Below, piece after piece: positions 14,843-48,511 of a stretch of DNA of 64,000 nucleotides. Numbering within the stretch: the stretch's first letter is position 1; each line of letters opens with the position of its first letter. The notes beneath the pieces are model-generated. The model was not told the DNA's origin, did no database searches, and saw only the letters and a list, made by a program, of their open reading frames with translations. The DNA lies in assembly GCF_058153355.1 (NCBI RefSeq), contig NZ_CM177019.1; one strand, 5' to 3'. A program made the translations under genes and the position numbers.

Positions 14843-14851
14843 AAGAACGCC

Positions 14852-14874
14852 AGAGCCTGCCAATGGCAGGCTCT
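14852..14874 (+). terminator. Hairpin downstream of gntP (AGAGCCTGCC-AATG-GCAGGCTCT)
   Basis: Perfect 9-10 bp stem seen in sequence; weak T tract, so low confidence. Confidence 0.35.
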
Positions 14875-14889
14875 GTTCGGATTGTCGGC

Positions 14890-14995
14890 AAAGTGCGCTT
14901 TGTTTATGCCAGATGCGACGCTGGCGCGTCTTATCTGGCCTACAAAGGGCTAACGTGCGGGTTTGTAGGTAGCGTAGCGCATCAGGCAATATTGC
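14890..14995. repeat. REP/BIME cluster between gntP and fimH
   Basis: Two inverted REP-like units (GCCAGATGCGACGCTGGCGCGTCTTATCTGGCCTAC ... GTAGGTAGCGTAGCGCATCAGGC). Confidence 0.55.
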
Positions 14996-15026
14996 GTACC
15001 AGCATTAGCAATGTCCTGTGATTTCT

Positions 15027-15929
15027 TTATTGATAAACAAAAGTCACGCCAATAATCGATTGCACATTCCCTGCAGTCACCTGCCCTCCGGTACGTGCGT
15101 AATTTGCCGTTAATCCCAGACTTACCGCCGAAGTCCCTACTGCTCCTAACGATACCGTGTTATTCGCTGGAATAATCGTACCGTTGCGCGTTAACTGTAC
15201 GCCGACGCCCTGTGCTGGTGAAAACGACGCGGTATTGGTGAAAATCGAGTTGCCCGCATCTGCGGTTGTGCCGGAGAGGTAATACCCCAGGTTTTGGCTT
15301 TTCGCACAATAAACGGTAAGAGGAATAGGTACCGAACCGGGATAGTCCGGCAGAGTCACGGTGACATCACGAGCAGAAACATCACAGCCGCCAGTGGGCA
15401 CCACCACATCATTATTGGCGTAAATATTCCACACAAACTGGAAATCATCGCTGTTATAGTTGTTGGTCTGTCGCAAAATAAGCACGGCAATTAATGAGCC
15501 AGCTTTAATCGCCACCCCGCCCGCACTGCTCACAGGCGTCAAATAAAGCGCCACCGGCCACGGCTTATCCGTTCTCGAATTATAAACAACGCGCGGCGTT
15601 TCGCTGGTGGTAGGAAATGGATAGCTACTGCCACTATATTTTACGGTCCCGGAAAAATGAGATAACACGCCGCCATAAGCCGAACCTCGTTGCAGTGTGA
15701 CATAGTCTGTAATGGTTTCCGGGTAATCGTTATGGCAAAAGATTTGCGTCGAAAGATCTACGACCAGGTTTTGCCCCACATTCACGGCGGGCGCAAGGTT
15801 TACATAAACATTGGCGCTGCCACCGCCAATAGGGATAGCGGTGCCATTGGCGGTTTTACAGGCGAATGACCAGGCATTTACCGACCAACCCATCAACAGT
15901 ACAGCAAACAGGGTAATAACTCTTTTCAT
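15027..15929 (-). CDS. fimH: Type 1 fimbrial adhesin FimH (mannose-binding); start at MKRVITL
   Basis: 300-aa precursor; FACKTANGTAIPIGGGSANVYVNLAP lectin domain. Confidence 0.96.
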   Translation of the reverse strand: MKRVITLFAVLLMGWSVNAWSFACKTANGTAIPIGGGSANVYVNLAPAVNVGQNLVVDLSTQIFCHNDYPETITDYVTLQRGSAYGGVLSHFSGTVKYSGSSYPFPTTSETPRVVYNSRTDKPWPVALYLTPVSSAGGVAIKAGSLIAVLILRQTNNYNSDDFQFVWNIYANNDVVVPTGGCDVSARDVTVTLPDYPGSVPIPLTVYCAKSQNLGYYLSGTTADAGNSIFTNTASFSPAQGVGVQLTRNGTIIPANNTVSLGAVGTSAVSLGLTANYARTGGQVTAGNVQSIIGVTFVYQ

Positions 15930-15948
15930 TACAATCATCTCTTCGGAT

Positions 15949-16452
15949 TCAGCTGTAGGTATAGGTGATGCTAATCACTGCCTGAATGGTTCCCTGAGTG
16001 GCTCCGCCATTTACCGTCAATGCTCTGACCTGTAACGGGAAGTGCGCTGATTGTGAGGAATCATCCACCTGAACTGTTTTGGTTGCGCCAGTATTCAATG
16101 TGTTGCCACTGTCATCCTGTAGCTCTAACTGGATGTTTTGCGCGGTCCCCTGGTTTTTATAATATCCCGTACTATCGGCTGCCCCGCTGAAGCTGGCGGT
16201 GACCCTCGATGTTCCCACCGGACAATGAGTCAACTCAAGCGCAACATCATGCCAGGCCGATGCCGCACCGGCAGACACGAGACTGAAAGAATAAAGATCG
16301 CCGAGATCAACCGTGGCATTAGTGGTGGAAACCGTGCACGGTTTGGCGACGACCTTACCGTTCACGGTGATCGTGACATCGGCGGCCTGTAGCGTCGCAC
16401 TTACGAGCGTCAACATTGCCGCCAATAAACACCCACGTATGCGCCATTTCAT
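15949..16452 (-). CDS. fimG: Type 1 fimbrial minor subunit FimG
   Basis: 167 aa pilin-like, position between fimF and fimH. Confidence 0.93.
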   Translation of the reverse strand: MKWRIRGCLLAAMLTLVSATLQAADVTITVNGKVVAKPCTVSTTNATVDLGDLYSFSLVSAGAASAWHDVALELTHCPVGTSRVTASFSGAADSTGYYKNQGTAQNIQLELQDDSGNTLNTGATKTVQVDDSSQSAHFPLQVRALTVNGGATQGTIQAVISITYTYS

Positions 16453-16464
16453 GAGCATCTCCAG

Positions 16465-16995
16465 TTACTGATATTCAAGAGTGAAGGTAGCCGTGGCATT
16501 GATATGCCCCGCAGTGACAGGCACCTGTGTCGCCATTAGCCGGGCGTAAAAATTCAGCGTATTTGGTTTACCCGGCGTCAGGGTCGTCCACGAAATCGCG
16601 GAGGATGGCGCATTAAGGGGGATCTGATTTTGTTGCTCATTCAGAAGCTGTATTCCCAGCCCCGCAGCCGCTGACACCGTATTTTCAAGTGCAAGCAGGT
16701 TGGCATTGTGACTATCTGCAACGCCGGTAAACCCAACCTTTACGGCAGAAACGGCATTACCACAGGGTGACAGCAAAATACGAAATGGAACGACAGGAGT
16801 CGTCGCGCCAATGTTGTTAAATTGCTTCGCCGCGTTTTCCATCAGATCAACAGTAAAATTGGTTGATTCAGCGGCCACACTACAGCCGTTATCTCTGACA
16901 TAGCCGCGGATAGTAATCGTGCTATCCGCAGCCAAAGCGTGACTTACCGCCAGCCACAAAAAAGCGCACAGAAGATAAAAAGGTTTGCTTTTCAT
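16465..16995 (-). CDS. fimF: Type 1 fimbrial minor subunit FimF
   Basis: 176 aa pilin-like; synteny. Confidence 0.93.
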
Positions 16996-17004
16996 CACGC
17001 CCCC

Positions 17005-19641
17005 TTAACGACATTCAGCTGATAGCTGGGTTAATAACTGCTGCTGACTCTCTGGTGGCAGTTGATAATTGGCGACACAGTGAGCATTTTCCTCTTCTCC
17101 CCATTTCACCTGAACTTTTCCCGCTAAAGGCATCCCGCTGAGATAAACCTGACCATTATCCGCAACAATGCCGCTACTCTGGCTACTCTCTGATGTGACC
17201 ATCGCCCCAAACGGCAGCGGCTTATTATTGTGGGTTAGCGTCATGAGCAGTTTTATCCCAACACGCGCTTTAAACTCTGCTCGCACAATTGCCCCACGGG
17301 TGGGAACAACGTTAGCGACCGCGTTATCTAAATCGACGTTATCAGCCAGGGTATTGGTATCCAGCGCCACTCTATTTTCCCGATATTCTGTGGCATAAGG
17401 CAGCACGGCATAGCCGCGCCAGTCGGTACGCACCCCCGTCTGGTTTTCAACTTTTGCATCTTTTGCGCCGGGCGTTTTAACAAGCACCACCGTATCGTTT
17501 AACGGCTGCCCCAGCGTTACGCCATTGGCATGAGCCAATACCCCACCGCTGATTCCGTAATAGAGCTGCTTAATATCATCGCTATGGCTGTAACCAATGT
17601 TGGCATTGCCGTAGCCACCGCGATAATTCAGCGCGGCGTAGCCTGTACTTCCGCTATTACCATCGCCTCCCCCGGCATAGCCGGTTTGCACGCTATAGCT
17701 GAGGTTATTGTCTTCCAGCAACGTACCGTATACGCCCGCAAGGTTGGTCATCCGACCGTTGAGATCGTGTGACATGCTGTAGCTGGCACTGGCATGTCGC
17801 CACTGAGATTTACTGTCAGAACGCAGCCAGTGGCTGAAAGGAATATTGATGTTAAGAGCCAACATCTGATCCCGTCCTTTTTGCCACGCGTTTTTCGTCA
17901 GGCTATAGCTGAGCGTCCAGTTGATATCTTCGAAAGCAGTATTTAATCCAGCCTGGAATTGCTCATCGACATTACTCGTTCCCCAATAAGTTTGATGGCT
18001 ACCACTCAAATACAGTGTTGATGTGCGTCCGAGTTGCTGAGTAACAGTGAGCTGTAATTTCCCGCGTTTGTTATAAGCGAGATTGTAATAGTCGGTAAAT
18101 TTCGGCTTAACCTGAATAACACCATCCTGTGTTTCGATGTTGTAGCCACTCATTCGGCTGTATGTTGTATCAGCGAAATTAAAATACCCGCTGGTCGAGT
18201 AACGGTAACCCACTAACTGAAAATTCGTACCTGACTCATTGAGCGATTTGTTATAGAGAAAACGCACCGATTGCCCGTCATGCTGACTGTCATCAGGAAG
18301 TGTGGAATTAGCCTGCGTCATATCCACGGACAGAGCGCCCAGTGCCCCCATGTTTTTCCCGATACCGAAATTAAAAGCGCGATAACGATCCGCCAGTTGC
18401 GTTCCACCATATATTGTCCAGCCAGCCGGAAGGCCGTGGAGTAATGTACTCTGGAAAAAACGGGGTTTATCCTGTTGCGCATTTCCACTACGGTATTCTC
18501 CTGCCGTAATGGAATAACGAGTATGCCCTTCACGTTGCAAAAGCGGGACTGACGAATAGGGTACGGTAAAGATCTGCGTGCTACCGTCAGCCTCTTTAAT
18601 CGTTACCTGCAAGTCACCACTATTACCTGCGGCATAGATATCGTTGATGGTAAAAGGCCCCGGTGGCACCGTACTATTATAAATGTCATACCCATTTTGT
18701 TTAATAGTGACCTGTGCAGTACCACGAGCAATACCGTGGATCACCGGGGCAAATCCTCTTTGGCTATCGGGTAACATATTGTCATCTGAGGCCAATTGTG
18801 CGCCGCGGAAGTTAATACCATCAAAAATATCGCCCTGAGTATAACCATCACCCAGCGTCAGCCGGGAACGCAACGGTATTATGTCTCGCTCAAGCCAGGT
18901 ATTGATATGCTGCCATTTATTTTTGCTACCTGATGAACTGTCGCTACTGTTATAACTCCAGGTGGTATTGTCGCGTAAACGCCATGCACCAATATTTAAC
19001 CCACTCTGTAGGTTTAAATATGCATAATGGCTGTTACCACCAATCCGATTCTGTACACTATTTCCGCTGAAATTATAATTGAGCAATCCGGCATTAATAC
19101 CGGGATCCCATAACTCAGGAGGAATATAACCACGCGCGCGATTACTCATAAATGCCTGAGGGATCGTCAGGTTGAGTCGCTGCTGACCAACATCCAGATG
19201 CGCAGTAGCGTCATGGATCATTGAGGTTAATGGCACGCAGGCATCATCCGCCAGCAGATTCATACCGGAGACAGAAGCCGTATTCAGCCCCATACTGGCA
19301 AGTTGCGCGCGTGTCAGGCAGGGAACAATCCCTTGTTCACTGTCGCCCGTATTAAATGTGACATCACGCGTTGCCATATAACCATTATTCAAATAGATAT
19401 CGACGCGATACGTCCCTGGCGGTAATTCTTGACCATTCTCGAAACGCGATAAATCGGCCACAGCCTGGGGATCATCCGCTAAAAAGCGCGGATTAAAATA
19501 GAGTTCGGCAGATGACAAATGTGCCTGTGCGGCAAAAGCACAGGCGACAAAGAGCCGAACAAAAAAACCAGCCAGACGAGGCTTACGAATATGCAAGCAT
19601 TGTGTGTTTCGCTGGTAAAGTCTTAAATTCAGATATGACAT
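17005..19641 (-). CDS. fimD: Outer membrane usher FimD
   Basis: 878 aa usher-family protein. Confidence 0.96.
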   Translation of the reverse strand: MSYLNLRLYQRNTQCLHIRKPRLAGFFVRLFVACAFAAQAHLSSAELYFNPRFLADDPQAVADLSRFENGQELPPGTYRVDIYLNNGYMATRDVTFNTGDSEQGIVPCLTRAQLASMGLNTASVSGMNLLADDACVPLTSMIHDATAHLDVGQQRLNLTIPQAFMSNRARGYIPPELWDPGINAGLLNYNFSGNSVQNRIGGNSHYAYLNLQSGLNIGAWRLRDNTTWSYNSSDSSSGSKNKWQHINTWLERDIIPLRSRLTLGDGYTQGDIFDGINFRGAQLASDDNMLPDSQRGFAPVIHGIARGTAQVTIKQNGYDIYNSTVPPGPFTINDIYAAGNSGDLQVTIKEADGSTQIFTVPYSSVPLLQREGHTRYSITAGEYRSGNAQQDKPRFFQSTLLHGLPAGWTIYGGTQLADRYRAFNFGIGKNMGALGALSVDMTQANSTLPDDSQHDGQSVRFLYNKSLNESGTNFQLVGYRYSTSGYFNFADTTYSRMSGYNIETQDGVIQVKPKFTDYYNLAYNKRGKLQLTVTQQLGRTSTLYLSGSHQTYWGTSNVDEQFQAGLNTAFEDINWTLSYSLTKNAWQKGRDQMLALNINIPFSHWLRSDSKSQWRHASASYSMSHDLNGRMTNLAGVYGTLLEDNNLSYSVQTGYAGGGDGNSGSTGYAALNYRGGYGNANIGYSHSDDIKQLYYGISGGVLAHANGVTLGQPLNDTVVLVKTPGAKDAKVENQTGVRTDWRGYAVLPYATEYRENRVALDTNTLADNVDLDNAVANVVPTRGAIVRAEFKARVGIKLLMTLTHNNKPLPFGAMVTSESSQSSGIVADNGQVYLSGMPLAGKVQVKWGEEENAHCVANYQLPPESQQQLLTQLSAECR

Positions 19642-19707
19642 TATTCCTCCGGTTTAAAATTACCCGGCAGTCAATTCTTTTTATTCAGGCGAAAAATTCC
19701 CCCTGCG

Positions 19708-20433
19708 TTATTCCATTACGCCCGTCATTTTTGGGGTAAGTGCGCCATAATCATTTATTGTTCGGTAAGTAATGTTGCTTCCTGCATCAGAAGGTAATTT
19801 AACTGTGCTTTCGCCCATTGGAGGCACCAATGCATTTTCAAGAACCCGAGTTCCGGCATTCAACTCTGTTACCGTCAGGTAATAGGGTGTCGGGTTAATC
19901 AGCGTCAGAGAATTCGCGCTACGACGAAATCTTAATTTTTCTGCGGCCTGATCGGGTGGCAACGCTAATTTAGCCGGGCGATAGTACAATTTAATGCGGC
20001 TGATAATTGCGAGCTGTAGCGTATTCTCAATCAATTTTGATTTATCCATTGACGGAATCGCTTTAACGTTCATCCAGAATAAACTTTCCCGATCCTGTGG
20101 CAATTGGTTATTTGTGGCATCAAGAATACGTAAGGTATTCTCTTTTTTTCCCTTCATCGCAAACAGAGGTGGCGTCACGATAAAACGACCATCCTTTACA
20201 CCATCGGCATTTTCCACCCATGATTGAATTAAATAGGTGCTATTTTCATCATTATTTGTCACGGCAAGTTGCACTTGTTTTTGCCCTGCCGGATAAATTA
20301 CGCGAGTCGCACCTAAGGCCACTCCTGCTTCCGCGCGTCCGGCAGCCATCATTGCCATGATCATCAGGATACCTGCCAGCAAGCAGAATGTTATTTCCTG
20401 CAATTTCCTTACATTGACGTTTTTATTACTCAC
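19708..20433 (-). CDS. fimC: Periplasmic chaperone FimC
   Basis: 241 aa PapD-like chaperone. Confidence 0.96.
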   Translation of the reverse strand: MSNKNVNVRKLQEITFCLLAGILMIMAMMAAGRAEAGVALGATRVIYPAGQKQVQLAVTNNDENSTYLIQSWVENADGVKDGRFIVTPPLFAMKGKKENTLRILDATNNQLPQDRESLFWMNVKAIPSMDKSKLIENTLQLAIISRIKLYYRPAKLALPPDQAAEKLRFRRSANSLTLINPTPYYLTVTELNAGTRVLENALVPPMGESTVKLPSDAGSNITYRTINDYGALTPKMTGVME

Positions 20434-20469
20434 TGTCCTGTTCCTGTTATCACATTATCTGCTGAACAA

Positions 20470-21009
20470 TTACTGATAGGTTAAAGAGAACCAGGCCTGA
20501 GCATTGGCGATGCCGCCAGTAACCCGACGCCCGGTAGCACGATATTTGGCGATGAAATGTAACGACGTAGAGCCTGAGTAAAGTCGTTTCCAGTTTGCTG
20601 GAGGACGATTAATCGGTACAAGGTTTCCTTCATCATCAAACAACGCTACGCCAATATTGGTGGCAATCCCTGGCCCCTCTCCCACGGAAAGCACATCCGG
20701 ATTTTTACCATCCGCGACACCGTGAAACGCCACACCCACACGTTCACTCACCACCGTGCTACATTCCCGTAAATGAATAACAAAAGGCACCGGTGCGCTA
20801 TCTTCCCCAACCGCATGAAACCGGTTACTGCTGATTTGCCTCATATTGACCGTCATTTGTTTATCACCAGCTTCAATCCGGCAAGCTTCTGCAATAATGA
20901 CGCCCTGAAATTGCATATTTCCGCCGGGCAACGTGGTGTTCCATTTATTTCCGGCCAGAGCAAACATTGGCAGCAACGACGCTAATAGAAATAATCTCTT
21001 CCTTTTCAT
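20470..21009 (-). CDS. fimI: Fimbrial protein FimI (start at [12 protein letters not shown] track extends to 21141)
   Basis: 179 aa pilin-like; between fimA and fimC. Confidence 0.9.
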
Positions 21010-21073
21010 CGTTATTTTTATCGCACAAGGGTGGGCATCCCTGCCCATAATGACGTCCCTGAACCTGGGTAGG

Positions 21074-21622
21074 TTATTGATACTGAACCTTGAAAGTCGC
21101 ATCCGCATTAGCAGCACCTGGGGTTGCGGCACCGGTTGCAAAGTAACGCGCCTGGAACGGAATGGTGTTAGTACCGTTATTCAGGGTTGTTTCTGCACTA
21201 AATGTCGCACCGTCCAGCGCCAGTGCAGCACCCGTTCTGTCCAGGATCTGCACACCAACGTTTGTTGCACTACCTGCAGCAGAACTCTGCAGAGCCAGAA
21301 CGTTGGTATGAGTCGCATCAATCGCCGTACCTAAAAAGGCAACAGCGGCTTTTGATGCAACATTGGTATCGCAATCATTCAGCTGAATGTTAAAACCGAC
21401 AGCAGAACTGGTTGCTCCGTCCTGTGCCAGCGATGCGGCACGAACCTGTCCTAACTGAACGGTTTGATCAACAGAGCCTGCATCAACTGCGCAAGCGGCG
21501 TTAACAACTTCCCCTTTAAAGTGAACGGTCCCACCATTAACCGTCGTGGCAGCGGCCAGAGCCGCTGTAGAACTGAGGGACAGAGCCGACAGAACAACGA
21601 TTGCCAGAGTTTTAATTTTCAT
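21074..21622 (-). CDS. fimA: Type 1 fimbrial major subunit FimA (start at [12 protein letters not shown] track extends to 21778)
   Basis: 182 aa; signal peptide [24 protein letters not shown]-terminal ...FKVQYQ. Confidence 0.96.
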
Positions 21623-21739
21623 GCTGCTTTCCTTTAAAAAACTATTTCTAAATCGACATGGGCAGTCGTTCTGTACACTTTGTTTTGAAACGAATTGGAC
21701 TGCCAACACTGCACAGTTCTTCCCCAAAAGATGAAACAT

Positions 21740-22053
21740 TTGGGGCCATTTTGACTCATAGAGGAAAGCATTACGCACGAACTTTCTTAGTTTATTATTT
21801 GGATTTATATTCTATTAATACATTATTTTATAGATTTTTATATTGAACGCGGTGGTTTTTGGAGAGATGAATGAGGAAGTTGCTTCGAGACACAGAAACG
21901 TTAGCTTTACCTATAGCGGAGGTGATGTGAAATTAATTTATAAGAGAAACAATTTACATATCAAACAGTTAGTTGCTTTATGTCGTTTTTTTATATTTTT
22001 ATGCTTGAGAACAAATACAAAACTTTTTTATGATATGGACAGTTTGGCCCCAA
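21740..22053. promoter_or_regulatory. fimS: fimS invertible phase-variation switch (314 bp) bounded by 9-bp inverted repeats TTGGGGCCA (21740-21748) and TGGCCCCAA (22045-22053)
   Basis: Exact 9-bp inverted repeats spaced to give a 314-bp element between fimE and fimA, the published size of the fim switch. Confidence 0.9.
22005..22034 (+). promoter_or_regulatory. Sigma70-like promoter inside fimS (TTGAGA, 17-18 bp spacer, TATGAT) reading toward fimE, away from fimA
   Basis: Hexamers seen on the + strand next to the fimE-proximal inverted repeat; fimA is on the - strand at lower coordinates. Confidence 0.55.
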
Positions 22054-22100
22054 TTGTCTTATATTTCCTTATCTTTTCATATTATTATCAATAAGTTACA

Positions 22101-22697
22101 TCAGGCATCTTCTCTTTTTAATTTTTCGTTTATGAGATTATTTCTTTCCCATAATCCGGCAAAACGTGCAGCATTACTGGCGGTATAACGCACAGTATGG
22201 CGAATATTTCGATGCCCGAGATAATCCTGAATTAAACGGGTATCTGCACCACGCTCCGCCAGTTCATAACCGCAAGCATGCCTTAACATATGAGGATGAG
22301 TCTGCGTCACGGTTCCAGCTTCAATACCGGCATCGCGAATAATGCGATAGGCCTGCTGGCGAGAAAGTCGACTCCCGCGGCGAGAAATAAATATGGCGTC
22401 GGTCTGGTCAGCGCCTTTCCAGTTAATACGTTCCTGGGTCCAGCGCTCCACAGCTTCACGCTCATCAAAACGTAACGGGTGAACGGTAGAAAATCCGTTC
22501 TTCAGTCGGCGAATATTTATTCGACCTTCGTTAAGGTCAAGATCCTGATAATGCAGATCAAGCAGTTCACTAATACGCATCCCATGCCGATATGCCAACA
22601 AAATTAGGCAATAATCTCTGGCTCCCGTTGCCCCGTAACAAACCGCCTGCATCATGTCCTGAACTTCTTTACCGGTAAGATAACGACGTTTACTCAC
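22101..22697 (-). CDS. fimE: Tyrosine recombinase FimE (ON-to-OFF switching)
   Basis: 198 aa phage-integrase-family recombinase (catalytic motifs HxxRH ... Y); position adjacent to fimS. Confidence 0.93.
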   Translation of the reverse strand: MSKRRYLTGKEVQDMMQAVCYGATGARDYCLILLAYRHGMRISELLDLHYQDLDLNEGRINIRRLKNGFSTVHPLRFDEREAVERWTQERINWKGADQTDAIFISRRGSRLSRQQAYRIIRDAGIEAGTVTQTHPHMLRHACGYELAERGADTRLIQDYLGHRNIRHTVRYTASNAARFAGLWERNNLINEKLKREDA

Positions 22698-23174
22698 AAT
22701 AGTAGTACTCCTGACTGAGATATATTTGAATGAATACCTATAGGAAACCTCGATCGGTTAAAATTAGCCCAATAGATAAAAAGATAACCACACAGGAAGT
22801 TATGTGGCTATCAGTCAATTACATTAAATATCATACAAAAATAAAATATCACTGATGTGACAACATCTATTTTCATTGATTTGATTCAATATAACAATAG
22901 ATTGCAGCGGATTAACTTCCAGTTGCTTAAAAAATAAAGAAAAAAGTGCAGAAACAGGAGAACTTGAGTGATGTGTAAATTTATGAATGATTTTGTTTAT
23001 TTATTTTGAAGAACATAAACCATTGTATTTTGTATGGATATGGTTAACTTAATGTTTATTATGATAATTAAGAATCACACTTACAATAACATCAATTAAT
23101 AAATGGTTAATCATTTTTGATATATCGTAAGAATAATGTATTTTTTAACACCATCCCTGGTATCTCATCTATCT

Positions 23175-23777
23175 CTATAAAACAGCGTGATGCTGTCGTC
23201 CTCTGGCTCTATCCCAGATGCCGTAAAAACGCCCTGCATTGCTGGCGGTATACCAGACAGTATGACGAATATTGCGATGCCCAAGATAATCCTGGATAAG
23301 TCGTGTATCTATTCCCATATTCGCCAAAGCAAAACCACACGAATGGCGTAACATATGCGGATGAATCTCCAGTGATAACCCAGCATTACCACCAGAAGTC
23401 GAGATAATATGGTAAAACTGTTGCCGAGAAAGCGGGTTCCCCTTACGTGATAAAAATACCCACTCGCTCTCAGCATGCGGATAAGAAGTACGTATACTCA
23501 ACCAGTTTTTTAAAGCCTGAACTTCTTTGTTCAATAGCGGGTGCGTTGTTGAAAAGCCTTTTTTTAATCGATGGATATAGATACACTTTGCCTTAAGATC
23601 AATATCCGAAATCCTCAATCGACAAATTTCACTCGCCCGGAAACCATGAATAAAACAAAGCAAAGTCAGACAATAATTACGTGCTGCATGAGGCCCGGTA
23701 TTTGCTGCTTTAAGGAGTGACTCGATTTCACTATGGGTCAGGAAGTTCCTTTTTTTGTTATCAGCCTTATTCTTCAT
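23175..23777 (-). CDS. fimB: Tyrosine recombinase FimB
   Basis: 200 aa, paralogous to FimE; upstream of fimE. Confidence 0.93.
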   Translation of the reverse strand: MKNKADNKKRNFLTHSEIESLLKAANTGPHAARNYCLTLLCFIHGFRASEICRLRISDIDLKAKCIYIHRLKKGFSTTHPLLNKEVQALKNWLSIRTSYPHAESEWVFLSRKGNPLSRQQFYHIISTSGGNAGLSLEIHPHMLRHSCGFALANMGIDTRLIQDYLGHRNIRHTVWYTASNAGRFYGIWDRARGRQHHAVL

Positions 23778-28100: not shown

Positions 28101-28751
28101 TTAATTTGATTTATTCGCATCCATCAACGCTTTTAACTGCTCCGGCGAAAACGGTGGTTTGCGTCGGTGCAACATCGCATGGCAATTAGGGCACACAGGA
28201 AGCAAATCATTAACTGGATCCAGCTGGTAATCCTCTTTAATGGCTGAAAGCGGCACCAGGTGATGCACATGGATAAAGCCTTCAGCGATATCACCATAGA
28301 TCTTCACCAGATCAACGCCGCATACTTTGCACTGGCATCCATGATGTTCGACCGCTTTATCTCGGGCCTTTTTATCGCGTTCATAGCGGTTTACTGTCAC
28401 CTTTATCGCCGCACCTTCAAGGTATGTCTCCTGCGACGGCAACTCATCCGGGAACAGAACGTCGGCTATGGGAGCCGCAGCGGCTTTATCCTGATGAATA
28501 TGAAATCCCTGCTCTATGAGTAGTTTGACGCATTTAGATTTTATTCCGCCGGTGAAATCCGCAGGGGTAAATTGCGTCCCCGTCATCAATGTCGCTGCGA
28601 TGCCAGCAATCGCCTTCGAGGGGTAACGTCGGCCATGATATTCAATCTCATACAACCGCGCAGGCTGGAACTGATGAGTTTCTCCCGCATCCCATAAATG
28701 GATAGCTTCGATGATATACCGCCGCGGAAGATGATCAGGGAGTTTATTCAT
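28101..28751 (-). CDS. HNH-family endonuclease (216 aa) with an uncharacterised N-terminal domain
   Basis: C-terminal CxxC...HVHHLVPLS...N...CPNCH zinc-finger/HNH motif; N-terminal ~130 aa not recognised; convergent with nanS (7-bp gap). Confidence 0.7.
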   Translation of the reverse strand: MNKLPDHLPRRYIIEAIHLWDAGETHQFQPARLYEIEYHGRRYPSKAIAGIAATLMTGTQFTPADFTGGIKSKCVKLLIEQGFHIHQDKAAAAPIADVLFPDELPSQETYLEGAAIKVTVNRYERDKKARDKAVEHHGCQCKVCGVDLVKIYGDIAEGFIHVHHLVPLSAIKEDYQLDPVNDLLPVCPNCHAMLHRRKPPFSPEQLKALMDANKSN

Positions 28752-28887
28752 GGAGAATGTCCTTATACGTTCTCAGAACAGGCAGCAAAAAAACAAATGA
28801 GATCAAGGTAATATATCTTCACTTGCAGGCTTGAACAGCAGAAAATTTGCGAGCATGATCGCAATTATTTCACTGCCAGGGATATCA

Positions 28888-29760
28888 ATGGCTTCCAGTA
28901 AATCGCTACAGCAGGCAATTGCCAACATAAAAATCTGGCACAAGGGTGAACAGCGCGCGCCGCATAAGCCATTGTTACTGCTATACGTATTAGCGGGATA
29001 CCTGAATGGACATCCGCGCCTTTTCGATTATGGCTCGGAAATCTACGAACCTCTGCACAGTTTACTGGAACGTTTTGGGCCACAGCGTTCACAGTACCGA
29101 CCTGATATGTCGTTCTGGCGATTACAAGGCGACGGATTCTGGCAATTACACAATGCCGAACTTTGCTCAACAGCAGGGAGTAGCCGACAACCGCCAGTGA
29201 AGGAACTGACCGAACACCGCGTTGCAGGCGGTTTCGATGAACAGCACTATGCCCTGGTAATCGGCAATAAAAAACTCATCAATACCCTAGCGCAACAGAT
29301 ACTCGAAGCGCACTTCACCGAGAGCATTCAGGAAGAAATTGCTGACGAGCTGGGTTTTGATCTCCAGCAAATCCGTAAACAGCGCGACCCGTTATTTCGC
29401 AAAAATGTATTACGCGCTTATAAATACCAGTGCGCGATATGTGGCTTTAATATGCGCCACGACGACACCACCGTCGCGTTGGAAGCGGCGCATATAAAAT
29501 GGAAACAGCACGGCGGTCCTTGTGAAATTCCTAATGGCCTGGCGCTTTGTGCAATACACCATAAAGCCTTTGATAAAGGATCGATTGGCCTGGATGAAAA
29601 TATGCGGGTACTGGTCTCGGATGCGGTAAACGGCGGAGGGATCGTTGAGAAACTATTCTGGGATTTTGACGGGAAAACTATTGCGTTACCACAGGTGCGT
29701 AAAAATTACCCTTTTGAGGGGTTTGTGGAGTGGCATCGAAAAGAGGTTTTTAGGGGGTGA
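28888..29760 (+). CDS. HNH nuclease-domain protein (~290 aa from ATG at 28888; ORF track begins at a TTG at 28831), candidate modification-dependent restriction endonuclease
   Basis: C-terminal CAICGF...EAAHIKW...NGLALCAIHHKAFD motif resembling the HNH_2-type nuclease fold; AGGGA Shine-Dalgarno before 28888; N-terminal domain unassigned. Confidence 0.65.
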   Translation: MASSKSLQQAIANIKIWHKGEQRAPHKPLLLLYVLAGYLNGHPRLFDYGSEIYEPLHSLLERFGPQRSQYRPDMSFWRLQGDGFWQLHNAELCSTAGSSRQPPVKELTEHRVAGGFDEQHYALVIGNKKLINTLAQQILEAHFTESIQEEIADELGFDLQQIRKQRDPLFRKNVLRAYKYQCAICGFNMRHDDTTVALEAAHIKWKQHGGPCEIPNGLALCAIHHKAFDKGSIGLDENMRVLVSDAVNGGGIVEKLFWDFDGKTIALPQVRKNYPFEGFVEWHRKEVFRG

Positions 29761-29761
29761 G

Positions 29762-29817
29762 GTAGGCTATCTTGTGCATACAAATAGACAAATAAATTGT
29801 ATAAAGAGATAGCCTAC
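29762..29817. terminator. Inverted repeat (GTAGGCTATCT ... AGATAGCCTAC) between convergent genes; possible bidirectional terminator
   Basis: 11-bp perfect inverted repeat with ~34-nt AT-rich loop seen in sequence. Confidence 0.3.
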
Positions 29818-29822
29818 AAATA

Positions 29823-31133
29823 CTAAATAAATTCAGCCCCACTAGGAAAACGCAACTCTGATGTCTGTAAACTCTCGCCAATAAAGAAAGGTACAACCCA
29901 TAAACGTAACCTATTTTCCTTCTGATGGCTAAATTCATAAGGATGAGGAGATGGCTGATTAAATCCGTTATGATAGGGGTATATCAAAATCATATCACCT
30001 TCCCCCTCCTGGTAATTCAATCCATAGGCAAGCATTTGGTAGAGATCGGCTTGAGATTGCTCAAGACTGTCCTTTCTGCCATTAACTATCTTCCATTTAA
30101 CATCACAGGTAATAACTGAACCAGTAGTACTTTTACGAGGCCGTAAACAAATATCAGGCCGCAGCTTAAATAAAGCTTTACCGTTATAACTAATCAGATT
30201 TTTTGAACTTACCTGTGCGTCCACTCGCCATTTATCATAATAACGATAACGCATCCATGTCGTCACAAAAGATTCAAAAACAGCCTCCATCGGGAAAAGC
30301 AGTGAAAAAGCATTAACATCCCCATACATACAGTGTGGAGAATCGCCCAATAAAATCATCTTCGCCCACGCTAATGCTTGCTCATAGTGATGCATTTGTC
30401 TATCAAAGTGTAACTGCTCGAAAGCTATATAAGCATCATGAACTGACGTGATATTTTCAAAGTGAAACTGCAGCTGTGTTATCTGCTGTAATAATTGTGG
30501 ATTACTGGTCTGGCGACTAATCTTATTGATTGCAGTTTTGAGTATCCGGTTTTCCAGACGATTGACGCTGTACTCGTCATACTCTACCTGAAAACGATCC
30601 CGCCTAATACAGTTTTTGCTTAATTGTGCAGAGATCCGTAATCTTCCTTTCATCCATGGAAGATTATCTTCCTGACGTAAATAGTCACGTTTTAACCCTC
30701 TCTGCACAATCTTACGCACGCTCTCTATAAATTGTTGAATAAAGATATCCATCAGAGGCATTTTAGATATTTTGACGCCAGATTCAGAGGAGGCAATATG
30801 ACGAAATGATTTTAACGTACGTAACATCATCAGTAATTGTTGACGAACAGTATCCTCATTATCCTGACCTGTTTTAGGCAGGATTTCGAGAAATCGCCCC
30901 CCTGGCAGTGAGATTACTCCTGCATAGTTTTTTACCTGCAGCGTTTTTACTCCATTCCGGCTGCTAAGGGTGAGCAAACGATGAGTATTATCAGCATCGT
31001 CTTTCAGACAGCGCAGCTCAAGCCATTTAAATAGGTCTGCAGGTAGCACTACCGCATTATTTATACGGGCATCACCTTCCTCACTCACTAAATGCCCGTA
31101 TTCGAACACAGTGAAATGACTGGAAGATTTCAT
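29823..31133 (-). CDS. McrC-like nuclease subunit of a McrBC-type modification-dependent restriction system (start at MKSSSHF; ORF track TTG start at 31199)
   Basis: ATG overlaps the stop of the upstream McrB-like gene (ATGA overlap); size and position typical of McrC; sequence is not the K-12 McrC. Confidence 0.7.
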   Translation of the reverse strand: MKSSSHFTVFEYGHLVSEEGDARINNAVVLPADLFKWLELRCLKDDADNTHRLLTLSSRNGVKTLQVKNYAGVISLPGGRFLEILPKTGQDNEDTVRQQLLMMLRTLKSFRHIASSESGVKISKMPLMDIFIQQFIESVRKIVQRGLKRDYLRQEDNLPWMKGRLRISAQLSKNCIRRDRFQVEYDEYSVNRLENRILKTAINKISRQTSNPQLLQQITQLQFHFENITSVHDAYIAFEQLHFDRQMHHYEQALAWAKMILLGDSPHCMYGDVNAFSLLFPMEAVFESFVTTWMRYRYYDKWRVDAQVSSKNLISYNGKALFKLRPDICLRPRKSTTGSVITCDVKWKIVNGRKDSLEQSQADLYQMLAYGLNYQEGEGDMILIYPYHNGFNQPSPHPYEFSHQKENRLRLWVVPFFIGESLQTSELRFPSGAEFI

Positions 31134-33184
31134 TCCGCACTCCTGCGTTTTTCTTTTTGAGGTGCATAAATTTGCTGCCAGGCGATTGGATTGTCCCAAA
31201 CGTTGTCATCCTCTGCTGCCAGGTGAAAACTGGTTCCCAAGTCATCTGTTCCGTTATCACCAAAGAGATCGGCATACTTTTTCTGGTATTTCACCTCACG
31301 TACAAATTGAAGATCTGGTGCTTCCTCTTTTTGGTTATCAGCCAGTACCATGCGAATTTTTTGCCAGTCATTGTAAAAATATTCTTCCAGCAATGGTAGT
31401 ATCTTATTTCGCATAATCCGTTTGAATCTTTCAAATGCCAGAGCTTCGTCTTCTTTTGCCTGCACAACAGGGATAAAAAAAGCATGCCCCAGCATATGTT
31501 CTCTATCGTATAAAACCTGGATGCGATCGTTAAGCGTCTGCAATAGACGAGGCAGATCAATACCTTTAATGACAGTATCTTTCAGAACAGTAATATCTGG
31601 CAGCATCGCTTCAAAATCAAATCTGCGACGTAGTGCAGTATCAAGTGCAGTAAGCGAATGATCAGCAGTGTTCATGGTACCAATTAAATAAAGGTTATTC
31701 GGTACACTAAATGGAGTGGAAGAGTATGGCAGCAATACGCTAAGCGATTCTGGCTCACCAGCCCGTTTAGATGGCTCAATAAGGGTAATTAGTTCACCAA
31801 AAATTTTTGAAATATTACCCCGATTTATTTCATCAATAATGAGAACATAGTTTTCCTTTTTTTCTGAAGCTACGCTCTGAGTATTCAGAGGCAGATAACG
31901 TTGATTAATTAAATAGTTAAGGATACTGCGTACATAAGATGGATTATGTACTTTTGCTCGTGGATCCTGATAAACTTGCCGAATATCCTTCAAATAGGCA
32001 TTGTAACCCTGTCCTAAATCCTCTTTTTTCGATTGTGACGGAAAAATTCCAAAGTTGGTTTGACTTTTATACGTCAGCTGGAAGGCCTTACCCTGTTGTG
32101 TTTCCAGCGTGATATTTTCACCTTCAGATAAACGTTCTTGTAGGCGAGTAAGTGCGCTATCCAACATTTCCTGCGCACCAGCATGACCAAAGGCGGCATC
32201 CTCGCATATCTGTTTAAAAATACCTGCCTTTATTTCGTATTTTACATTACCGTCATCAGTAGTCTCAGCTCTTAAACCTTCAATAAACTCTTCATAACCA
32301 AAGCTCTGATGAAAGGTGATAAAACGCACTCGATTATCTTTGATAAGCTGATCATAAATCTTTTTCAACTCGCGACGTTTTTCACTCTCATCCTTACCCT
32401 CCTGCAGGGAGTAAGCGATCGGATCACAAATTTGTACAGCAAGCTCAATAGTACGATATGTTTTACCTGTACCTGGCGGGCCATAGAGAATTGTGTTTTT
32501 AGGCAATGGCGAACTTATAACATCATCTTCTTGCTCATTTTCTTGTAAAGCACTTTCGCTTCCAACTAAACCGATAGCATTTTTATCCTGAATTTCATAC
32601 GCATAGAGATGCCAAAGTGACATATTCAGCTCAATAGGGTCGATATCATCACCCAGCGCACGATTTAGCGTTTCTTTAAGATCAACATTGCGAGCCAGCC
32701 ACTCCCGTTCTCCGGAAAGACCTAGCTGGAAATGGTTGTTGCAATAATTGTAGCAACTAAAAAAATTATTAACATTCACGACACTGCTAATTTTTGATGG
32801 GTATATTGCTGCAAAAGCACGATTACAAAGAGCCCTATATACCTTATTTAATACTCCGTCCGCTTTAAGTTTGATAAGACGTTCAATGACCCGATTATAA
32901 TTTTCTTGTGTACACTCTTCTGCTATCTGACGGGTGAGCGTTAGAAGGTCTTTTTGTGCATTTTCAAATTCAACCAATGACATCCCACCTTGCATCAGGC
33001 TGGAGACACCATTGTCACGTTCATACCATACCTGCCGAATCGTGGCTTCAGAAAAGTTTGGTTTTTCGGCCTGAATCTGTTCTACAAGCTCGCGGTAGTG
33101 TTTGCCCCAAACTGAATTGTATTGATTATTTTTTTCAATTTGAGCACGAAAGAAGGGGGCTAATGCTGATGAATCCTGAACCAT
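31130..33184 (-). CDS. McrB-like AAA+ GTPase subunit (684 aa) with a divergent ~230-aa N-terminal domain
   Basis: Walker A LYGPPGTGKTY and McrB-signature MNTADHS...RRRF motifs; N-terminal region has no resemblance to the K-12 McrB DNA-binding domain. Confidence 0.78.
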   Translation of the reverse strand: MVQDSSALAPFFRAQIEKNNQYNSVWGKHYRELVEQIQAEKPNFSEATIRQVWYERDNGVSSLMQGGMSLVEFENAQKDLLTLTRQIAEECTQENYNRVIERLIKLKADGVLNKVYRALCNRAFAAIYPSKISSVVNVNNFFSCYNYCNNHFQLGLSGEREWLARNVDLKETLNRALGDDIDPIELNMSLWHLYAYEIQDKNAIGLVGSESALQENEQEDDVISSPLPKNTILYGPPGTGKTYRTIELAVQICDPIAYSLQEGKDESEKRRELKKIYDQLIKDNRVRFITFHQSFGYEEFIEGLRAETTDDGNVKYEIKAGIFKQICEDAAFGHAGAQEMLDSALTRLQERLSEGENITLETQQGKAFQLTYKSQTNFGIFPSQSKKEDLGQGYNAYLKDIRQVYQDPRAKVHNPSYVRSILNYLINQRYLPLNTQSVASEKKENYVLIIDEINRGNISKIFGELITLIEPSKRAGEPESLSVLLPYSSTPFSVPNNLYLIGTMNTADHSLTALDTALRRRFDFEAMLPDITVLKDTVIKGIDLPRLLQTLNDRIQVLYDREHMLGHAFFIPVVQAKEDEALAFERFKRIMRNKILPLLEEYFYNDWQKIRMVLADNQKEEAPDLQFVREVKYQKKYADLFGDNGTDDLGTSFHLAAEDDNVWDNPIAWQQIYAPQKEKRRSAE

Positions 33185-33542
33185 CTCTTAATCCAATATG
33201 TAGGGGGGAGGGAAATTGGGATAGCCTTATCTTATCGGATTAATCTCAAAAATGTTAAATTTTATGATAAAAAAAAACTTTCATCCTGAAATTACCTTCT
33301 GCCCTGGAGCCGCCACATTTATCTGATGACTTTGAACTGCAAAACGCATGGTGTTGGTGGTTCTCAGAGAAGGCCATAGCATTCTTTCAGACGTAAAATC
33401 GCTACTCGTTTTTCAACCTGTGTGCATTTTCTAGTTGCATAGGGAATCAACTGTTTTTCAGGTAGGTATTGTTTACAGTAAATGGATATGCCGAAATTCA
33501 GAGGGTTCCAGTAACGACATTTTGACAGCAAACATACGACAT

Positions 33543-34376
33543 TCATTTTGCTGATAACGCTGACGGATAGTGCTTCGCCACAATGTCATTCATCTTATCC
33601 ACCAGATCCAGTCGCTTGAATGTGATGTGTCCACTGCCTTTCTGGTAATAGCGGATGACAAATAAATCGTCATTAAATACCTGCTCATGCGGGTGAGCAC
33701 TAACGAAGTCCATAAACCGAATCGCAACATCATGCCGGTTATCGGGAATGGCCTTCCCATCCAGCAGATAGAACATCCGTTCCAGATCGGCAAGCTGATC
33801 TCGCCGCCAGCCCCAGTGCAGGCTGTAACCCCATCGGTCATGCTTCACCAGATTGTTAACGATAATCTTCTTACCGAAATAACAGGGATTATTGGTTTTG
33901 TAATCCCAGCTCAATCCCTTAAATACATTGATAATCCCACGTTCGAAAACGTCATGCTTATTGTGGTGGAGTTGTTCAAAGGTACTCAGGATGTTGGCTT
34001 CGCTAATCGCCGGGAGATCGCCCTCCTCCAGGTTCTTTGCCCACTGACTGCGGGCTTCGGCATCCATCAGAGTCAACATCCCGGACTTCAGCATGAGATC
34101 GCGCCAGATGCTGCGATCGATATTGCGGGTGATCGCCGACATCGCTTTGTCGGTTGGTTGCATCAGCCAGCAGTCAAAGGCATATCCATTACGCATTCCC
34201 CAGGTTCCAGCCACATCACCGCCAATACTGGATGTCAGACTGGAGATATCATCCAGTTTTTGGATTAGCGTCGCTATCAGCTTCAGTGCGCTATCACGTC
34301 CTGTGACGATACGCTCAATATTGGTCGAGCGAATTATCTCGTTGTGATCGGTTAAGACTTCAGCTTCTGTTTGCAT
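33543..34376 (-). CDS. Hypothetical protein (277 aa), same strand and upstream of the McrBC-like pair; possibly a DUF4942-type protein (low confidence)
   Basis: Uninterrupted ORF, no recognised catalytic motif; located inside the defence island. Confidence 0.5.
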   Translation of the reverse strand: MQTEAEVLTDHNEIIRSTNIERIVTGRDSALKLIATLIQKLDDISSLTSSIGGDVAGTWGMRNGYAFDCWLMQPTDKAMSAITRNIDRSIWRDLMLKSGMLTLMDAEARSQWAKNLEEGDLPAISEANILSTFEQLHHNKHDVFERGIINVFKGLSWDYKTNNPCYFGKKIIVNNLVKHDRWGYSLHWGWRRDQLADLERMFYLLDGKAIPDNRHDVAIRFMDFVSAHPHEQVFNDDLFVIRYYQKGSGHITFKRLDLVDKMNDIVAKHYPSALSAK

Positions 34377-34682
34377 AATCTTTCATCCGTAAAAAAATAC
34401 ACTCGCCGTTAGTAGCAGACGGATTATCCTCTGGTGAAAGATTGGGTAAATAATGAGATTGAAAATCGGGAAGGTGACTCGCAATAAATTATCTGATCAC
34501 CTACGGATGGACGATGGGCATATAAAATAGCCTCCTGACTCAAACGGTGAATGCTGAATAAGATGCACTAACAATCTGGTACTGAATCCCCTCCTCACCG
34601 TCATACAAATCTGAAAAACCAAAAAACTTCCGGTAAAATCCCGGCAAAAGCCGACGTTAAAAACACATTCAAAGGATAAAAA

Positions 34683-36239
34683 ATGACCAGTCTTCAGCAG
34701 CGCGCGGAGCTTCATCGCCAAATCTGGCAAATTGCTAACGATGTCAGAGGTTCGGTCGATGGATGGGATTTTAAGCAATACGTTCTGGGCGCGCTTTTCT
34801 ACCGTTTTATCAGCGAAAATTTTTCCAGCTATATTGAAGCCGGTGATGACAGCATCTGTTATGCGAAACTGGATGACAGCGTAATTACTGATGACATTAA
34901 AGACGATGCCATCAAAACCAAAGGCTACTTCATCTACCCAAGTCAGCTTTTCTGCAACGTAGCTGCGAAAGCAAATACCAATGACAGACTGAACGCAGAT
35001 TTAAACAGCATCTTCGTTGCTATCGAAAGTTCTGCTTACGGTTACCCTTCAGAAGCTGACATCAAAGGTTTGTTTGCTGATTTCGATACCACCAGTAACC
35101 GCCTGGGTAATACCGTTAAGGATAAAAATGCCCGCCTGGCCGCGGTTCTGAAAGGGGTTGAAGGGTTAAAGCTTGGCGACTTTAACGAACATCAGATTGA
35201 CCTGTTCGGCGATGCCTATGAGTTCCTGATTTCTAACTATGCGGCGAATGCCGGTAAGTCAGGCGGCGAGTTCTTTACACCGCAGCACGTCTCTAAGCTG
35301 ATTGCACAACTGGCTATGCACGGGCAGACCCACGTTAACAAAATCTACGACCCGGCAGCGGGTTCCGGTTCGCTGTTGTTGCAGGCTAAAAAGCAGTTTG
35401 ATGACCACATCATCGAAGAAGGTTTTTTTGGTCAGGAAATCAACCATACGACCTATAACCTGGCGCGTATGAACATGTTTTTGCACAACATCAACTACGA
35501 CAAGTTTGATATCAAGTTGGGCAATACGCTGACTGAGCCGCACTTCAGAGATGAAAAACCGTTTGACGCCATCGTATCTAACCCACCGTATTCGGTGAAA
35601 TGGATAGGCAGCGATGACCCGACGCTGATTAACGATGAACGTTTTGCCCCGGCTGGCGTCCTGGCCCCCAAATCAAAAGCTGACTTCGCCTTTGTACTAC
35701 ATGCGCTGAACTATCTTTCTGCCAAAGGTCGTGCTGCGATTGTCTGCTTCCCGGGTATTTTTTACCGTGGCGGCGCAGAGCAGAAAATCCGTCAGTATCT
35801 GGTTGATAATAACTATGTCGAAACCGTGATTTCACTGGCTCCGAACCTGTTCTTTGGCACCACCATTGCCGTCAATATTCTGGTGTTGTCTAAACATAAA
35901 ACCGATACCAAAGTTCAGTTTATTGACGCCAGCGAACTATTCAAAAAAGAGACTAACAACAACATTCTGACCGATGCCCATATCGAACAGATTATGCAGG
36001 TATTTGCCAGCAAGGAAGATGTTGCTCATCTGGCGAAATCTGTCGCGTTTGAGACCGTTGTCGCTAATGACTATAACCTGTCGGTAAGCAGCTATGTGGA
36101 AGCGAAAGATAACCGCGAAATTATCGATATCAGTGAGCTGAATGCTGAGCTGAAAACCACGGTCAGCAAAATCGACCAGTTGCGTAAAGATATTGATGCG
36201 ATTGTGGCTGAAATTGAAGGCTGCGAGGTGCAGAAATGA
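34683..36239 (+). CDS. hsdM: Type I restriction-modification system methyltransferase subunit HsdM (type IC, EcoR124-like)
   Basis: 518 aa; N6-adenine MTase motifs ([10 protein letters not shown] motif I; IVSNPPYS motif IV); closely resembles recalled EcoR124I HsdM. Confidence 0.93.
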
Positions 36240-37390
36240 ACGAGTTGAGTTATCTGGAAAAATTACTGGATGGGGTTGAGGTTGAGTGGTTGCCATTGGC
36301 TAAAGTTTGTCGTTTAATAAACGGGAGAGCATATAAGCAAGAAGAACTGCTTTCCAAAGGCAAATATCCAGTATTAAGAGTCGGTAATTTTTTTACTAAC
36401 CAAAATTGGTATTACTCAGATTTAGAATTAGATCAAGACAAGTATTGTGATAACGGTGACCTTTTATATGCTTGGTCCGCATCATTTGGTCCAAGAATTT
36501 GGCATGGGGGTAAATCTATTTACCATTATCACATATGGAAAGTGGTTCCAGATTCGAATCTTATTTGTAAACAGTTTCTATATTACTTGTTACAATGGGA
36601 TACTAAAGCACTTAAAGATGCACATAGCACTGGTTCTACTATGATGCACATCAGCAAAACTACAATTGAAAAAAGGTTAGTCCCCATCCCCTGCCCGGAT
36701 AATCCGGAAAAATCCCTTGCCATCCAGTCTGAAATCGTTCGGATTCTGGATAAATTTACTGCACTTACCGCTGAGCTTACCGCTGAGCTTAATATGCGAA
36801 AAAAACAGTACAACTACTATCTCGACCAGTTACTGAATCTTGAGGGTAGGGAAAATACTCGAGAAATGAGGATAGGTGATATTTATGATTTTCAGTATGG
36901 AACAGGCAATACAATTCCTAAATCTGGAGGGCAATATCCTGTTTATGGTAGCAACGGGATTGTAGGCTCCCATGACAAATATAACAGCGAAGACTCACCT
37001 GTTATTGGCCATATAGGTGCTTACGCAGGAATCGTTAACTGGGGCCAGGGTAAGCATTTTGTTACATACAACGGAGTTATTTGTAGGCACAAATCGAAGG
37101 AAGTTCTTCAAAAATACGCCTACTATTTATTACTTTTACAAGATTTCGGTTCAAAATCTAATAGTGCATCACAGCCTTTTGTTTCATATAACATATTAAA
37201 TGCTCCTATTGTTTTGGTTCCCCCTTTACAAGAGCAAGCTCGTATCGTCGCAATACTCGATAAATTCGACACCCTGACCAACTCCATCACCGAAGGTCTT
37301 CCGCGTGAAATCGAGTTGCGCCAGAAACAATACGAGTACTATCGTGATTTACTGTTCAGTTTCCCAAAACCTGAAACTCTCAGTAATTAA
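36236..37390 (+). CDS. hsdS: Type I R-M specificity subunit HsdS (type IC) with two target-recognition domains
   Basis: 384 aa; conserved central ([35 protein letters not shown]) and C-terminal ([33 protein letters not shown]) type IC regions flanking variable TRDs; 4-bp overlap with hsdM. Confidence 0.9.
36764..36787 (+). repeat. Two tandem copies of a 12-bp unit (CTTACCGCTGAG) encoding TAEL-TAEL in the HsdS central conserved region
   Basis: Perfect 12-bp tandem duplication seen in sequence; in type IC systems the copy number of this repeat sets the spacer length of the recognition site. Confidence 0.85.
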
Positions 37391-37511
37391 TTGACCATTA
37401 TTACAGACCGGACCATCTTAATATCCGGTCAGTATATAGACTATTTTTTACACGCCGGAAGTCACCATTAACCCCCTTCCGGCCCTTGCCAGACGGCACA
37501 AAGGATGCGCT

Positions 37512-40500: not shown

Positions 40501-40628
40501 CAGAATTAAACGAGACGTTACCAAAACTTAGTCCGTTAAACCCGCAATATAAAACGAAAAAACAGACGGTTTTCCAGAAGATCGTCGCGTTTATTGAGAA
40601 GTTTAAAGGTGTAGGCGGGCAGATATAA
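37512..40628 (+). CDS. hsdR: Type I restriction enzyme R subunit HsdR (type IC, EcoR124-like), 1038 aa
   Basis: SF2 helicase motifs ([24 protein letters not shown]) and N-terminal nuclease region; near-identical over long stretches to recalled EcoR124I HsdR. Confidence 0.93.
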
Positions 40629-46127: not shown

Positions 46128-46390
46128 TTTAAATACGCCCGTAAAAACTCGTCTTTTGCAGGATTTTAGCTTGTTTCATGGCTTAAACGTCATTTATTCT
46201 CTTGAGTCGTCGAAATCGTCGCTAAGATAATTATACTCAACGGATTCACCTCTCAGATTTTGTTCTGACGTGCCAATGCCGTAATAACGTTAAGATTAAC
46301 ACGAAGTCATCGCAACAGCGGACATGAGTTACGAAAGCTTGCAATTCTATCTGTAGCCACCGCCGTTGTCTTTAAGATTCAGGAGCGTAG

Positions 46391-47905
<1,515 letters not shown>

Positions 47906-47924
47906 TTGCATCAGGCTGTGTTGT

Positions 47925-48035
<111 letters not shown>

Positions 48036-48067
48036 CATATTTAAATCCACCACAAGAAGCCCCATTT

Positions 48068-48511
48068 ATGAAAAACGCGACGTTCTACCTTCTGGACAAT
48101 GACACCACCGTCGATGGCTTAAGCGCCGTTGAGCAACTGGTGTGTGAAATTGCCGCAGAACGTTGGCGCAGCGGTAAGCGCGTACTCATCGCCTGTGAAG
48201 ATGAAAAGCAGGCTTACCGGCTGGATGAAGCCCTGTGGGCGCGTCCGGCAGAAAGCTTTGTTCCGCATAATTTAGCGGGAGAAGGACCGCGCGGCGGTGC
48301 GCCGGTGGAGATCGCCTGGCCACAAAAGCGTAGCAGCAGCCCGCGCGATATATTGATTAGTCTGCGAACAAGCTTTGCAGATTTTGCCACCGCTTTCACA
48401 GAAGTGGTAGACTTCGTTCCTTATGAAGATTCTCTGAAACAACTGGCGCGCGAACGCTATAAAGCCTACCGCGTGGCTGGTTTCAACCTGAATACGGCAA
48501 CCTGGAAATAA
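48068..48511 (+). CDS. holC: DNA polymerase III chi subunit
   Basis: 147 aa; TAATG overlap with valS as in E. coli. Confidence 0.94.

Follow-up and report, generated by a model that had tools for sequence, protein, structure and literature searches.

The fim cluster and its fimH gene

The window, which is the whole 64,000-nucleotide stretch of contig NZ_CM177019.1 (assembly GCF_058153355.1) that was analysed, contains a type 1 fimbrial gene cluster on its minus strand (Table 1). The nine fim ORFs are full length, contain no internal stops and are syntenic with K-12; fimB/fimE and the invertible element fimS are located upstream. The fimS element is in the orientation of the MG1655 reference, as shown by a single plus-strand HSP to K-12, and the fimS region is 89.6% identical to K-12, which is below the identity of the genes on both sides.

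FimH is located at the fimbrial tip and binds terminal mannose through its N-terminal lectin domain, and its pilin domain allosterically tunes this mannose binding. Translation of the minus-strand fimH ORF, a longer form of which extends to 15938, yields the 300-aa FimH precursor, and the mature N-terminus (FACKTANG...) follows directly after the 21-aa signal peptide. Pfam domains PF09160 (FimH_man-bind) and PF00419 are recorded for a protein identical to the window FimH, and the window protein aligns over its full length with solved FimH chains (E ~1e-181). The 13 residues of the FimH mannose pocket (F1, I13, N46, D47, Y48, I52, D54, Q133, N135, Y137, N138, D140 and F142) are all unchanged. 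By every criterion tested, namely domains, pocket and operon context, the gene is fimH.

Table 1. Coordinates of features in the window
Feature	Coordinates	Strand	Basis or remark
iatD, 3' part	1..3114		Large inverse autotransporter gene, adjoining kptA
yjiC/DUF2686	8386..9306		
gntP-fimH spacer	14843..15026		Downstream of fimH
fim cluster, fimB-fimE-fimS-fimA-I-C-D-F-G-H	15027..23777	minus	Per-gene K-12 comparison; annotation of the near-identical 24A16CRGN010 region
fimH CDS	15027..15929	minus	300 codons + stop; type 1 fimbrial D-mannose-specific adhesin
Pilin domain, mature 160-279	15030..15389	minus	Protein identical to K-12
Lectin (mannose-binding) domain, mature 1-158	15393..15866	minus	Aligns end to end with solved lectin-domain chains (158-160 residues)
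Codon for mature residue 70, CAT = His (K-12: AAT = Asn)	15657..15659	minus	Alignment to K-12
Codon for mature residue 27, GCC = Ala (K-12: GTC = Val)	15786..15788	minus	Alignment to K-12
Signal peptide, 21 codons, MKRVITLFAVLLMGWSVNAWS	15867..15929	minus	Protein as in K-12; 3 silent differences
fimG	15949..16452		Full 167-codon ORF
fimA	21074..21622		
fimS region compared with K-12	21623..22100		
fimS invertible element, 314 bp between 9-bp inverted repeats TTGGGGCCA / TGGCCCCAA	21740..22053	minus	Repeat positions
Defence/restriction cluster	28101..40628		Between nan genes and yjgR
valS-holC-pepA-lptFG block	43945..51366		

Several neighbouring segments vary among related genomes. In fimG, eight of the ten substitutions relative to K-12 fall within the signal-peptide region, and RefSeq gives a shortened fimG of 147 aa in 24A16CRGN010, 2013C-4282, WL297 and MB52. 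The gntP-fimH spacer differs by 9% from that of 24A16CRGN010, and upstream of fimH the gene coordinates of the two sequences are offset by 12 bp. Among the clade-I-like genomes described below, fimA identity is 92-100%, which fits a hypervariable major subunit.

FimH differs from the K-12 protein at residues 27 and 70

A base-by-base comparison with fimH of K-12 MG1655 (b4320) identified 21 differences over 903 nt, an identity of 97.7%. Nineteen of these are synonymous, and the dN/dS ratio calculated by the Nei-Gojobori method is 0.033. The two nonsynonymous differences are V27A (GTC>GCC at window base 15787) and N70H (AAT>CAT at window base 15659), both numbered on the mature protein. The window and K-12 proteins are alike in length, signal peptide, two-domain layout and pocket residues, with 298 of 300 residues identical, and in both sequences fimH is the final gene of fimAICDFGH. 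The preliminary description of this DNA had read Ala27 and His70 in the mature protein, the latter within the string ...GGVLSHFSGT..., and had given Val27 and Asn70 as the K-12 residues; the translation and the alignment to MG1655 b4320 show that both statements were correct.

Ala27 is common and His70 is rare among E. coli genomes

Of 5426 complete E. coli genomes, 5354 gave a fimH match to a query with the whole gene; 24A16CRGN010 alone among them had a copy identical to the window gene, and the next best match was 99.2%. Codon states were counted in the complete genomes by megablast using 55-mers centred on the variable base, such that every 28-base seed spans that base. By these counts, which are approximate because the anchor misses alleles that have other codons (e.g., CAC) or variants close by, codon 70 is AAT (Asn) in 4625 genomes, AGT (Ser) in 345 genomes and CAT (His) in seven genomes, the last corresponding to ~0.14% of ~4977 scorable genomes. 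The suggestion that His at position 70 would be unusual was therefore well founded. The same cannot be said of Ala27, which had been put forward as a non-K-12 residue of interest: codon 27 is GCC (Ala) in 4000 of the 4934 scorable complete genomes (81%) and GTC (Val) in 934, and A27 has been reported in most natural FimH variants, the consensus included (Dreux et al., PMC3554634).

The states at these positions outside E. coli were obtained from a scan of species-representative genomes, which returned 40 FimH loci. The 34 near-full-length orthologues that were analysed come from Klebsiella, Kluyvera, Citrobacter, Raoultella, Enterobacter, Shimwellia, Erwinia, Pantoea and E. albertii, together with the E. 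coli representative; the scan yielded no FimH of E. marmotae, E. ruysiae, E. whittamii or E. fergusonii, and one Escherichia sp. contributed only a partial match covering residues 186-300. Mature position 70 is Ser in 27 of the 34 orthologues and Asn in seven, and His70 is absent from all of them. Position 27 is Ala in 32 and Glu in two, and position 78 is Asn in all 34. Because of these outgroup states at 27 and 78, Ala27 is assigned as the ancestral as well as the majority state, and Val27 and Ser78 of K-12 as derived, Val27 being the minority state. By the same polarization His70 is read as a derived state one base from Asn (AAT>CAT), the Asn codon in turn differing by a single base from the Ser codon of the outgroups (AGT). 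Within the outgroup set, the fimH homologue of E. albertii NBRC 107761 (L065, 1501-2384) has an open frame of just 140 residues from its start, and it is probably a frameshifted pseudogene since its tblastn match spans 884 nt rather than 903 nt.

The fim region of the window resembles cryptic clade I

When window positions 1-25000 were used as a query, 14 of the 5426 complete genomes matched at 97.6-98.8% identity and every other genome matched at 95.5% or less. Several of the 14, referred to here as clade-I-like, are published cryptic clade I strains; Table S1 of PMC10100065 assigns EC42405, 2013C-4282 and 2020CK-00188 to clade I. Three of the His70 carriers described below are strains published as cryptic clade I. 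Over 18 genes of the region, excluding yjiC and fimA as hypervariable, the window is 98.4-98.9% identical to clade-I-like genomes and 96.5% identical to K-12 (comparison genomes: EC42405, MB50, 24A16CRGN010, MFDS1022581, AP025754, CP098971 and K-12). These values fit the published ANI of >98.3% among cryptic clade I genomes and of >95.9% between these and E. coli sensu stricto (Okuno et al., PMC10100065); the agreement is a local one over ~16 kb. The C-I PCR marker gene EsCd1-10290c_1484 (PMC10100065) is part of a genomic island that lies outside the window. The flanks of the window fimH are 98.6% identical to those of 24A16CRGN010, and the two sequences diverge completely beyond ~29.7 kb, so the window is not from 24A16CRGN010. 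Nine more loci that encode the identical protein were compared with the window, and none of them matches it.

The clade signal does not extend evenly across the window. The valS-holC-pepA-lptFG block matches clade-I-like genomes and ordinary E. coli (e.g., APEC O78) at 98.3-98.6% in both cases, and the clade-specific identity gap that was sought in this block is absent, so the signal is regional rather than uniform. This pattern suggests that clade I and E. coli sensu stricto may have exchanged DNA regionally in the valS-lptG block. A query with positions 39001-64000 was uninformative with respect to lineage since the ranking was driven by accessory restriction genes. Taken together, the window probably derives from a clade I strain that bears the label E. 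coli.

Other segments of the window differ markedly between strains. The yjiC gene has two deeply divergent allele classes inside the clade-I-like set; the window copy is 99-100% identical to those of MB50 and 24A16CRGN010, 79% identical to those of EC42405 and MFDS1022581, and 93.8% identical to that of K-12. The defence/restriction cluster contains genes for an HNH endonuclease, McrC, McrB-like AAA proteins, a DUF4942 protein and a type I hsdM-hsdS-hsdR system. At about the same site, 24A16CRGN010 carries a different ~30 kb island, in which a type II Zorya system accompanies giant helicase and methyltransferase genes. At the position occupied by iatD in the window, K-12 has yjiJ-yjiK-yjiL-yjiM, and in MFDS1019527 iatD is split by IS2.

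His70 segregates with Asn70 on multiple clade-I-type haplotypes

All seven CAT genomes are among the 14 clade-I-like genomes; the remaining seven have AAT (Asn70), and Ala27 is present in all 14. His70 is thus found in 7 of 14 clade-I-like genomes versus none of the ~4963 other scorable genomes (Fisher p = 2e-19). When draft assemblies were included, each of the 12 His70 loci examined was flanked by clade-I-type sequence that is 98-99.7% identical to the window and ~95-96% identical to K-12. Relative to K-12, the His70 proteins have the changes V27A/N70H in 24A16CRGN010, EC42405 and MB50, and V27A/N70H/S78N in R32_14_1F, N96, 2017-02-2CC and 2020CK-00188, three of these four with one more change. 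Among the Asn70 members, MFDS1019527 and MFDS1022581 have V27A/S78N, and 2013C-4282, WL297, MB52, LR-58-1 and E04 have V27A. These last five encode the consensus E. coli FimH (A27/N70/S78; WP_000832227.1), which is also carried by many E. coli sensu stricto and is one residue apart from the window protein, with Asn70 in place of His70; their fimH genes have 13-15 nt differences to the window gene, and their flanks, like those of the window, are clade-I-type.

The fimH haplotypes of the clade are mosaic. Its members show nt 271 and nt 296 in all four possible combinations, which provides four-gamete evidence of recombination, and the 5' end of the window gene matches MB50 and its 3' half EC42405. 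The clade I strains 24A16CRGN010 and KS-P079 (AP025754) share the window fimH at 903 of 903 nt, whereas their surrounding DNA differs from the window by 1.2-1.4%, which marks the window as coming from a different strain. In the comparison with 24A16CRGN010, fimH and fimF have no differences, and the intervening fimG differs by 3.4% and uxuB by 3.2%. His70 is present on at least six nucleotide haplotypes, all belonging to one lineage and all with the identical base change. Recurrent mutation may have been the source of the multiple His70 haplotypes, but one origin followed by recombination is preferred over recurrence at a hotspot because every carrier has the same base change and all are of one lineage. 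We infer from these patterns that CAT probably originated once inside clade I and was then subject to local recombination.

The seven complete genomes with His70 are from human stool or rectal swabs (n = 3), cattle, poultry, goat and pig. The Asn70 members of the clade come from a similar mix, and no enrichment of His70 by host or disease was visible in this very small sample of 14 genomes. The sole urine isolate of the clade-I-like set, E04, carries Asn70.

A single base separates CAT from the common AAT, and the possibility was considered that the His codon arose through an error of sequencing or assembly limited to one genome. This is exceedingly improbable. The window FimH is identical to RefSeq WP_103253485.1 (UniRef A0A2K3TW65), the same protein is encoded on 521 public contigs (933 blocks in the contig index), and the identical 903-nt allele is present in at least five independent assemblies (24A16CRGN010, AP025754, CAXUAK01, ABHHSD01 and JALZQA01), from which we conclude that the codon is not an assembly artefact. 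Seven independent complete genomes, which come from six countries, also have CAT at codon 70, as do six further GenBank assemblies. An explanation in which the allele was recently acquired by recombination from a different species or genus, one where His70 is the usual FimH state, could draw on the mosaic structure of the fim region and on the RefSeq title of the protein, "MULTISPECIES ... [Escherichia]". It is nevertheless very improbable, as none of the 34 other-genus orthologues, E. albertii included, has His70, the differences that separate the window gene from that of K-12 are few and mainly silent, and clade-I-type flanks were present at every His70 locus examined.

Probable functional consequences of His70

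The preliminary description listed positions 27, 70 and 78 among sites affecting mannose-binding affinity. This does not agree with published measurements: the three residues are not near the mannose pocket, and isolated lectin domains differing at 27, 70 and 78 have similar affinities for oligomannose (Bouckaert et al., PMC1618777). Effects have nonetheless been reported in other assays. The N70S substitution alone halves the haemagglutination titre (PMC1618777), and full-length FimH with A27 has an about two-fold lower affinity (PMC12136410). In a FimH vaccine study, N70 was N-glycosylated in mammalian cells and N70S left the structure undisturbed (PMC12136410); residue 70 is probably solvent-exposed, as this glycosylation suggests. 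A search of solved structures found no PDB FimH chain with His70, and searches found no mention of N70H FimH in the open-access literature or in the supplement of the vaccine paper (PMC12136410).

A precedent for a lineage-linked change at position 70 on an A27 background is the phylogroup B2 S70/N78 clade of FimH (e.g., F-18, CI#4 and LF82; PMC1618777, PMC3554634). In that clade Ser70 is coupled to Asn78, whereas the window combines His70 with Ser78, and S70/N78 is the ancestral state found in the outgroups whereas His70 is derived. The S70/N78 combination has been treated as a marker of phylogroup B2 and not as an adaptive change (Dreux et al., PMC3554634), and FimH of this clade and of the K-12 type behave differently in a mouse gut colonisation model (PMC3554634).

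The window fimH is very likely an ordinary adhesin gene in an intact type 1 operon on a clade-I-type chromosome segment, with His70 a polymorphism of the lineage at a surface position that tolerates change. According to this model, the gene would be the normal adhesin gene of a chaperone-usher operon in a chromosome segment of cryptic clade I type. The AAT>CAT change would have arisen within clade I and spread among fimH haplotypes by local recombination, and His70 would now segregate with Asn70 at roughly equal frequency in the clade. Position 70 is expected to be permissive, being surface-exposed, far from the pocket and occupied by Ser or Asn across Enterobacteriaceae. Because the position has these properties, His70 is most likely neutral or weakly modulating, with at most a small effect, and not pathoadaptive. 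The position of the residue and the behaviour of N70S likewise lead us to expect little or no functional effect of His70.

A pathoadaptive or host-adaptive role, in which His70 alters adhesion through shear-dependent or allosteric binding or receptor preference and is kept by selection in clade I, is unlikely. Position 70 is one of very few variable sites in the lectin domain and has three states in Escherichia, and the halved haemagglutination titre of N70S and the different colonisation behaviour of S70/N78 FimH also speak for such a role. His70 also persists at ~50% on many clade haplotypes, and two state changes along Escherichia (Ser to Asn to His) in a nearly invariant lectin domain could reflect selection at the site. 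Against this role, the small sample contains no disease or host enrichment of carriers relative to Asn70 members, the carriers share the same single base change within one lineage, the residue is distant from the pocket (PMC1618777), the gene has a dN/dS of 0.03, and N70H is unreported in open-access papers. The pathoadaptive reading of residue 70 given in the preliminary description stands only in part: the residues are as described and His70 is rare, but His70 is confined to cryptic-clade-I-type genomes, where it is present in an approximately 1:1 ratio with Asn70. A more specific form, in which His70 would be a selected clade I tuning of FimH, held with Asn70 as a balanced polymorphism, that changes receptor preference or adhesion of the allosteric or shear-dependent kind, is likewise unlikely. 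Were it correct, His70 would add a third state to a site at which phylogroup B2 also differs from other E. coli, and the tuning would act in the livestock and human gut niches of clade I.

Implications

The exact FimH protein of the window is already catalogued as WP_103253485.1, and the finding is genuine but unremarkable; few bacterial adhesins have been studied as thoroughly as FimH, and this allele is of small weight for biology at large. Its uses are more practical. K-12 does not represent the normal state well at positions 27 and 78, and variant calling against K-12 inflates apparent novelty. FimH vaccines and mannoside drugs seek broad coverage of natural variants, for which His70 represents a surface variant that is absent from the solved structures. 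The restriction of His70 to clade-I-type genomes was not found in the literature searched and is a possible lineage flag: present here in cryptic-clade-I-type genomes only, His70 could flag strains that are mislabelled as ordinary E. coli by routine methods.
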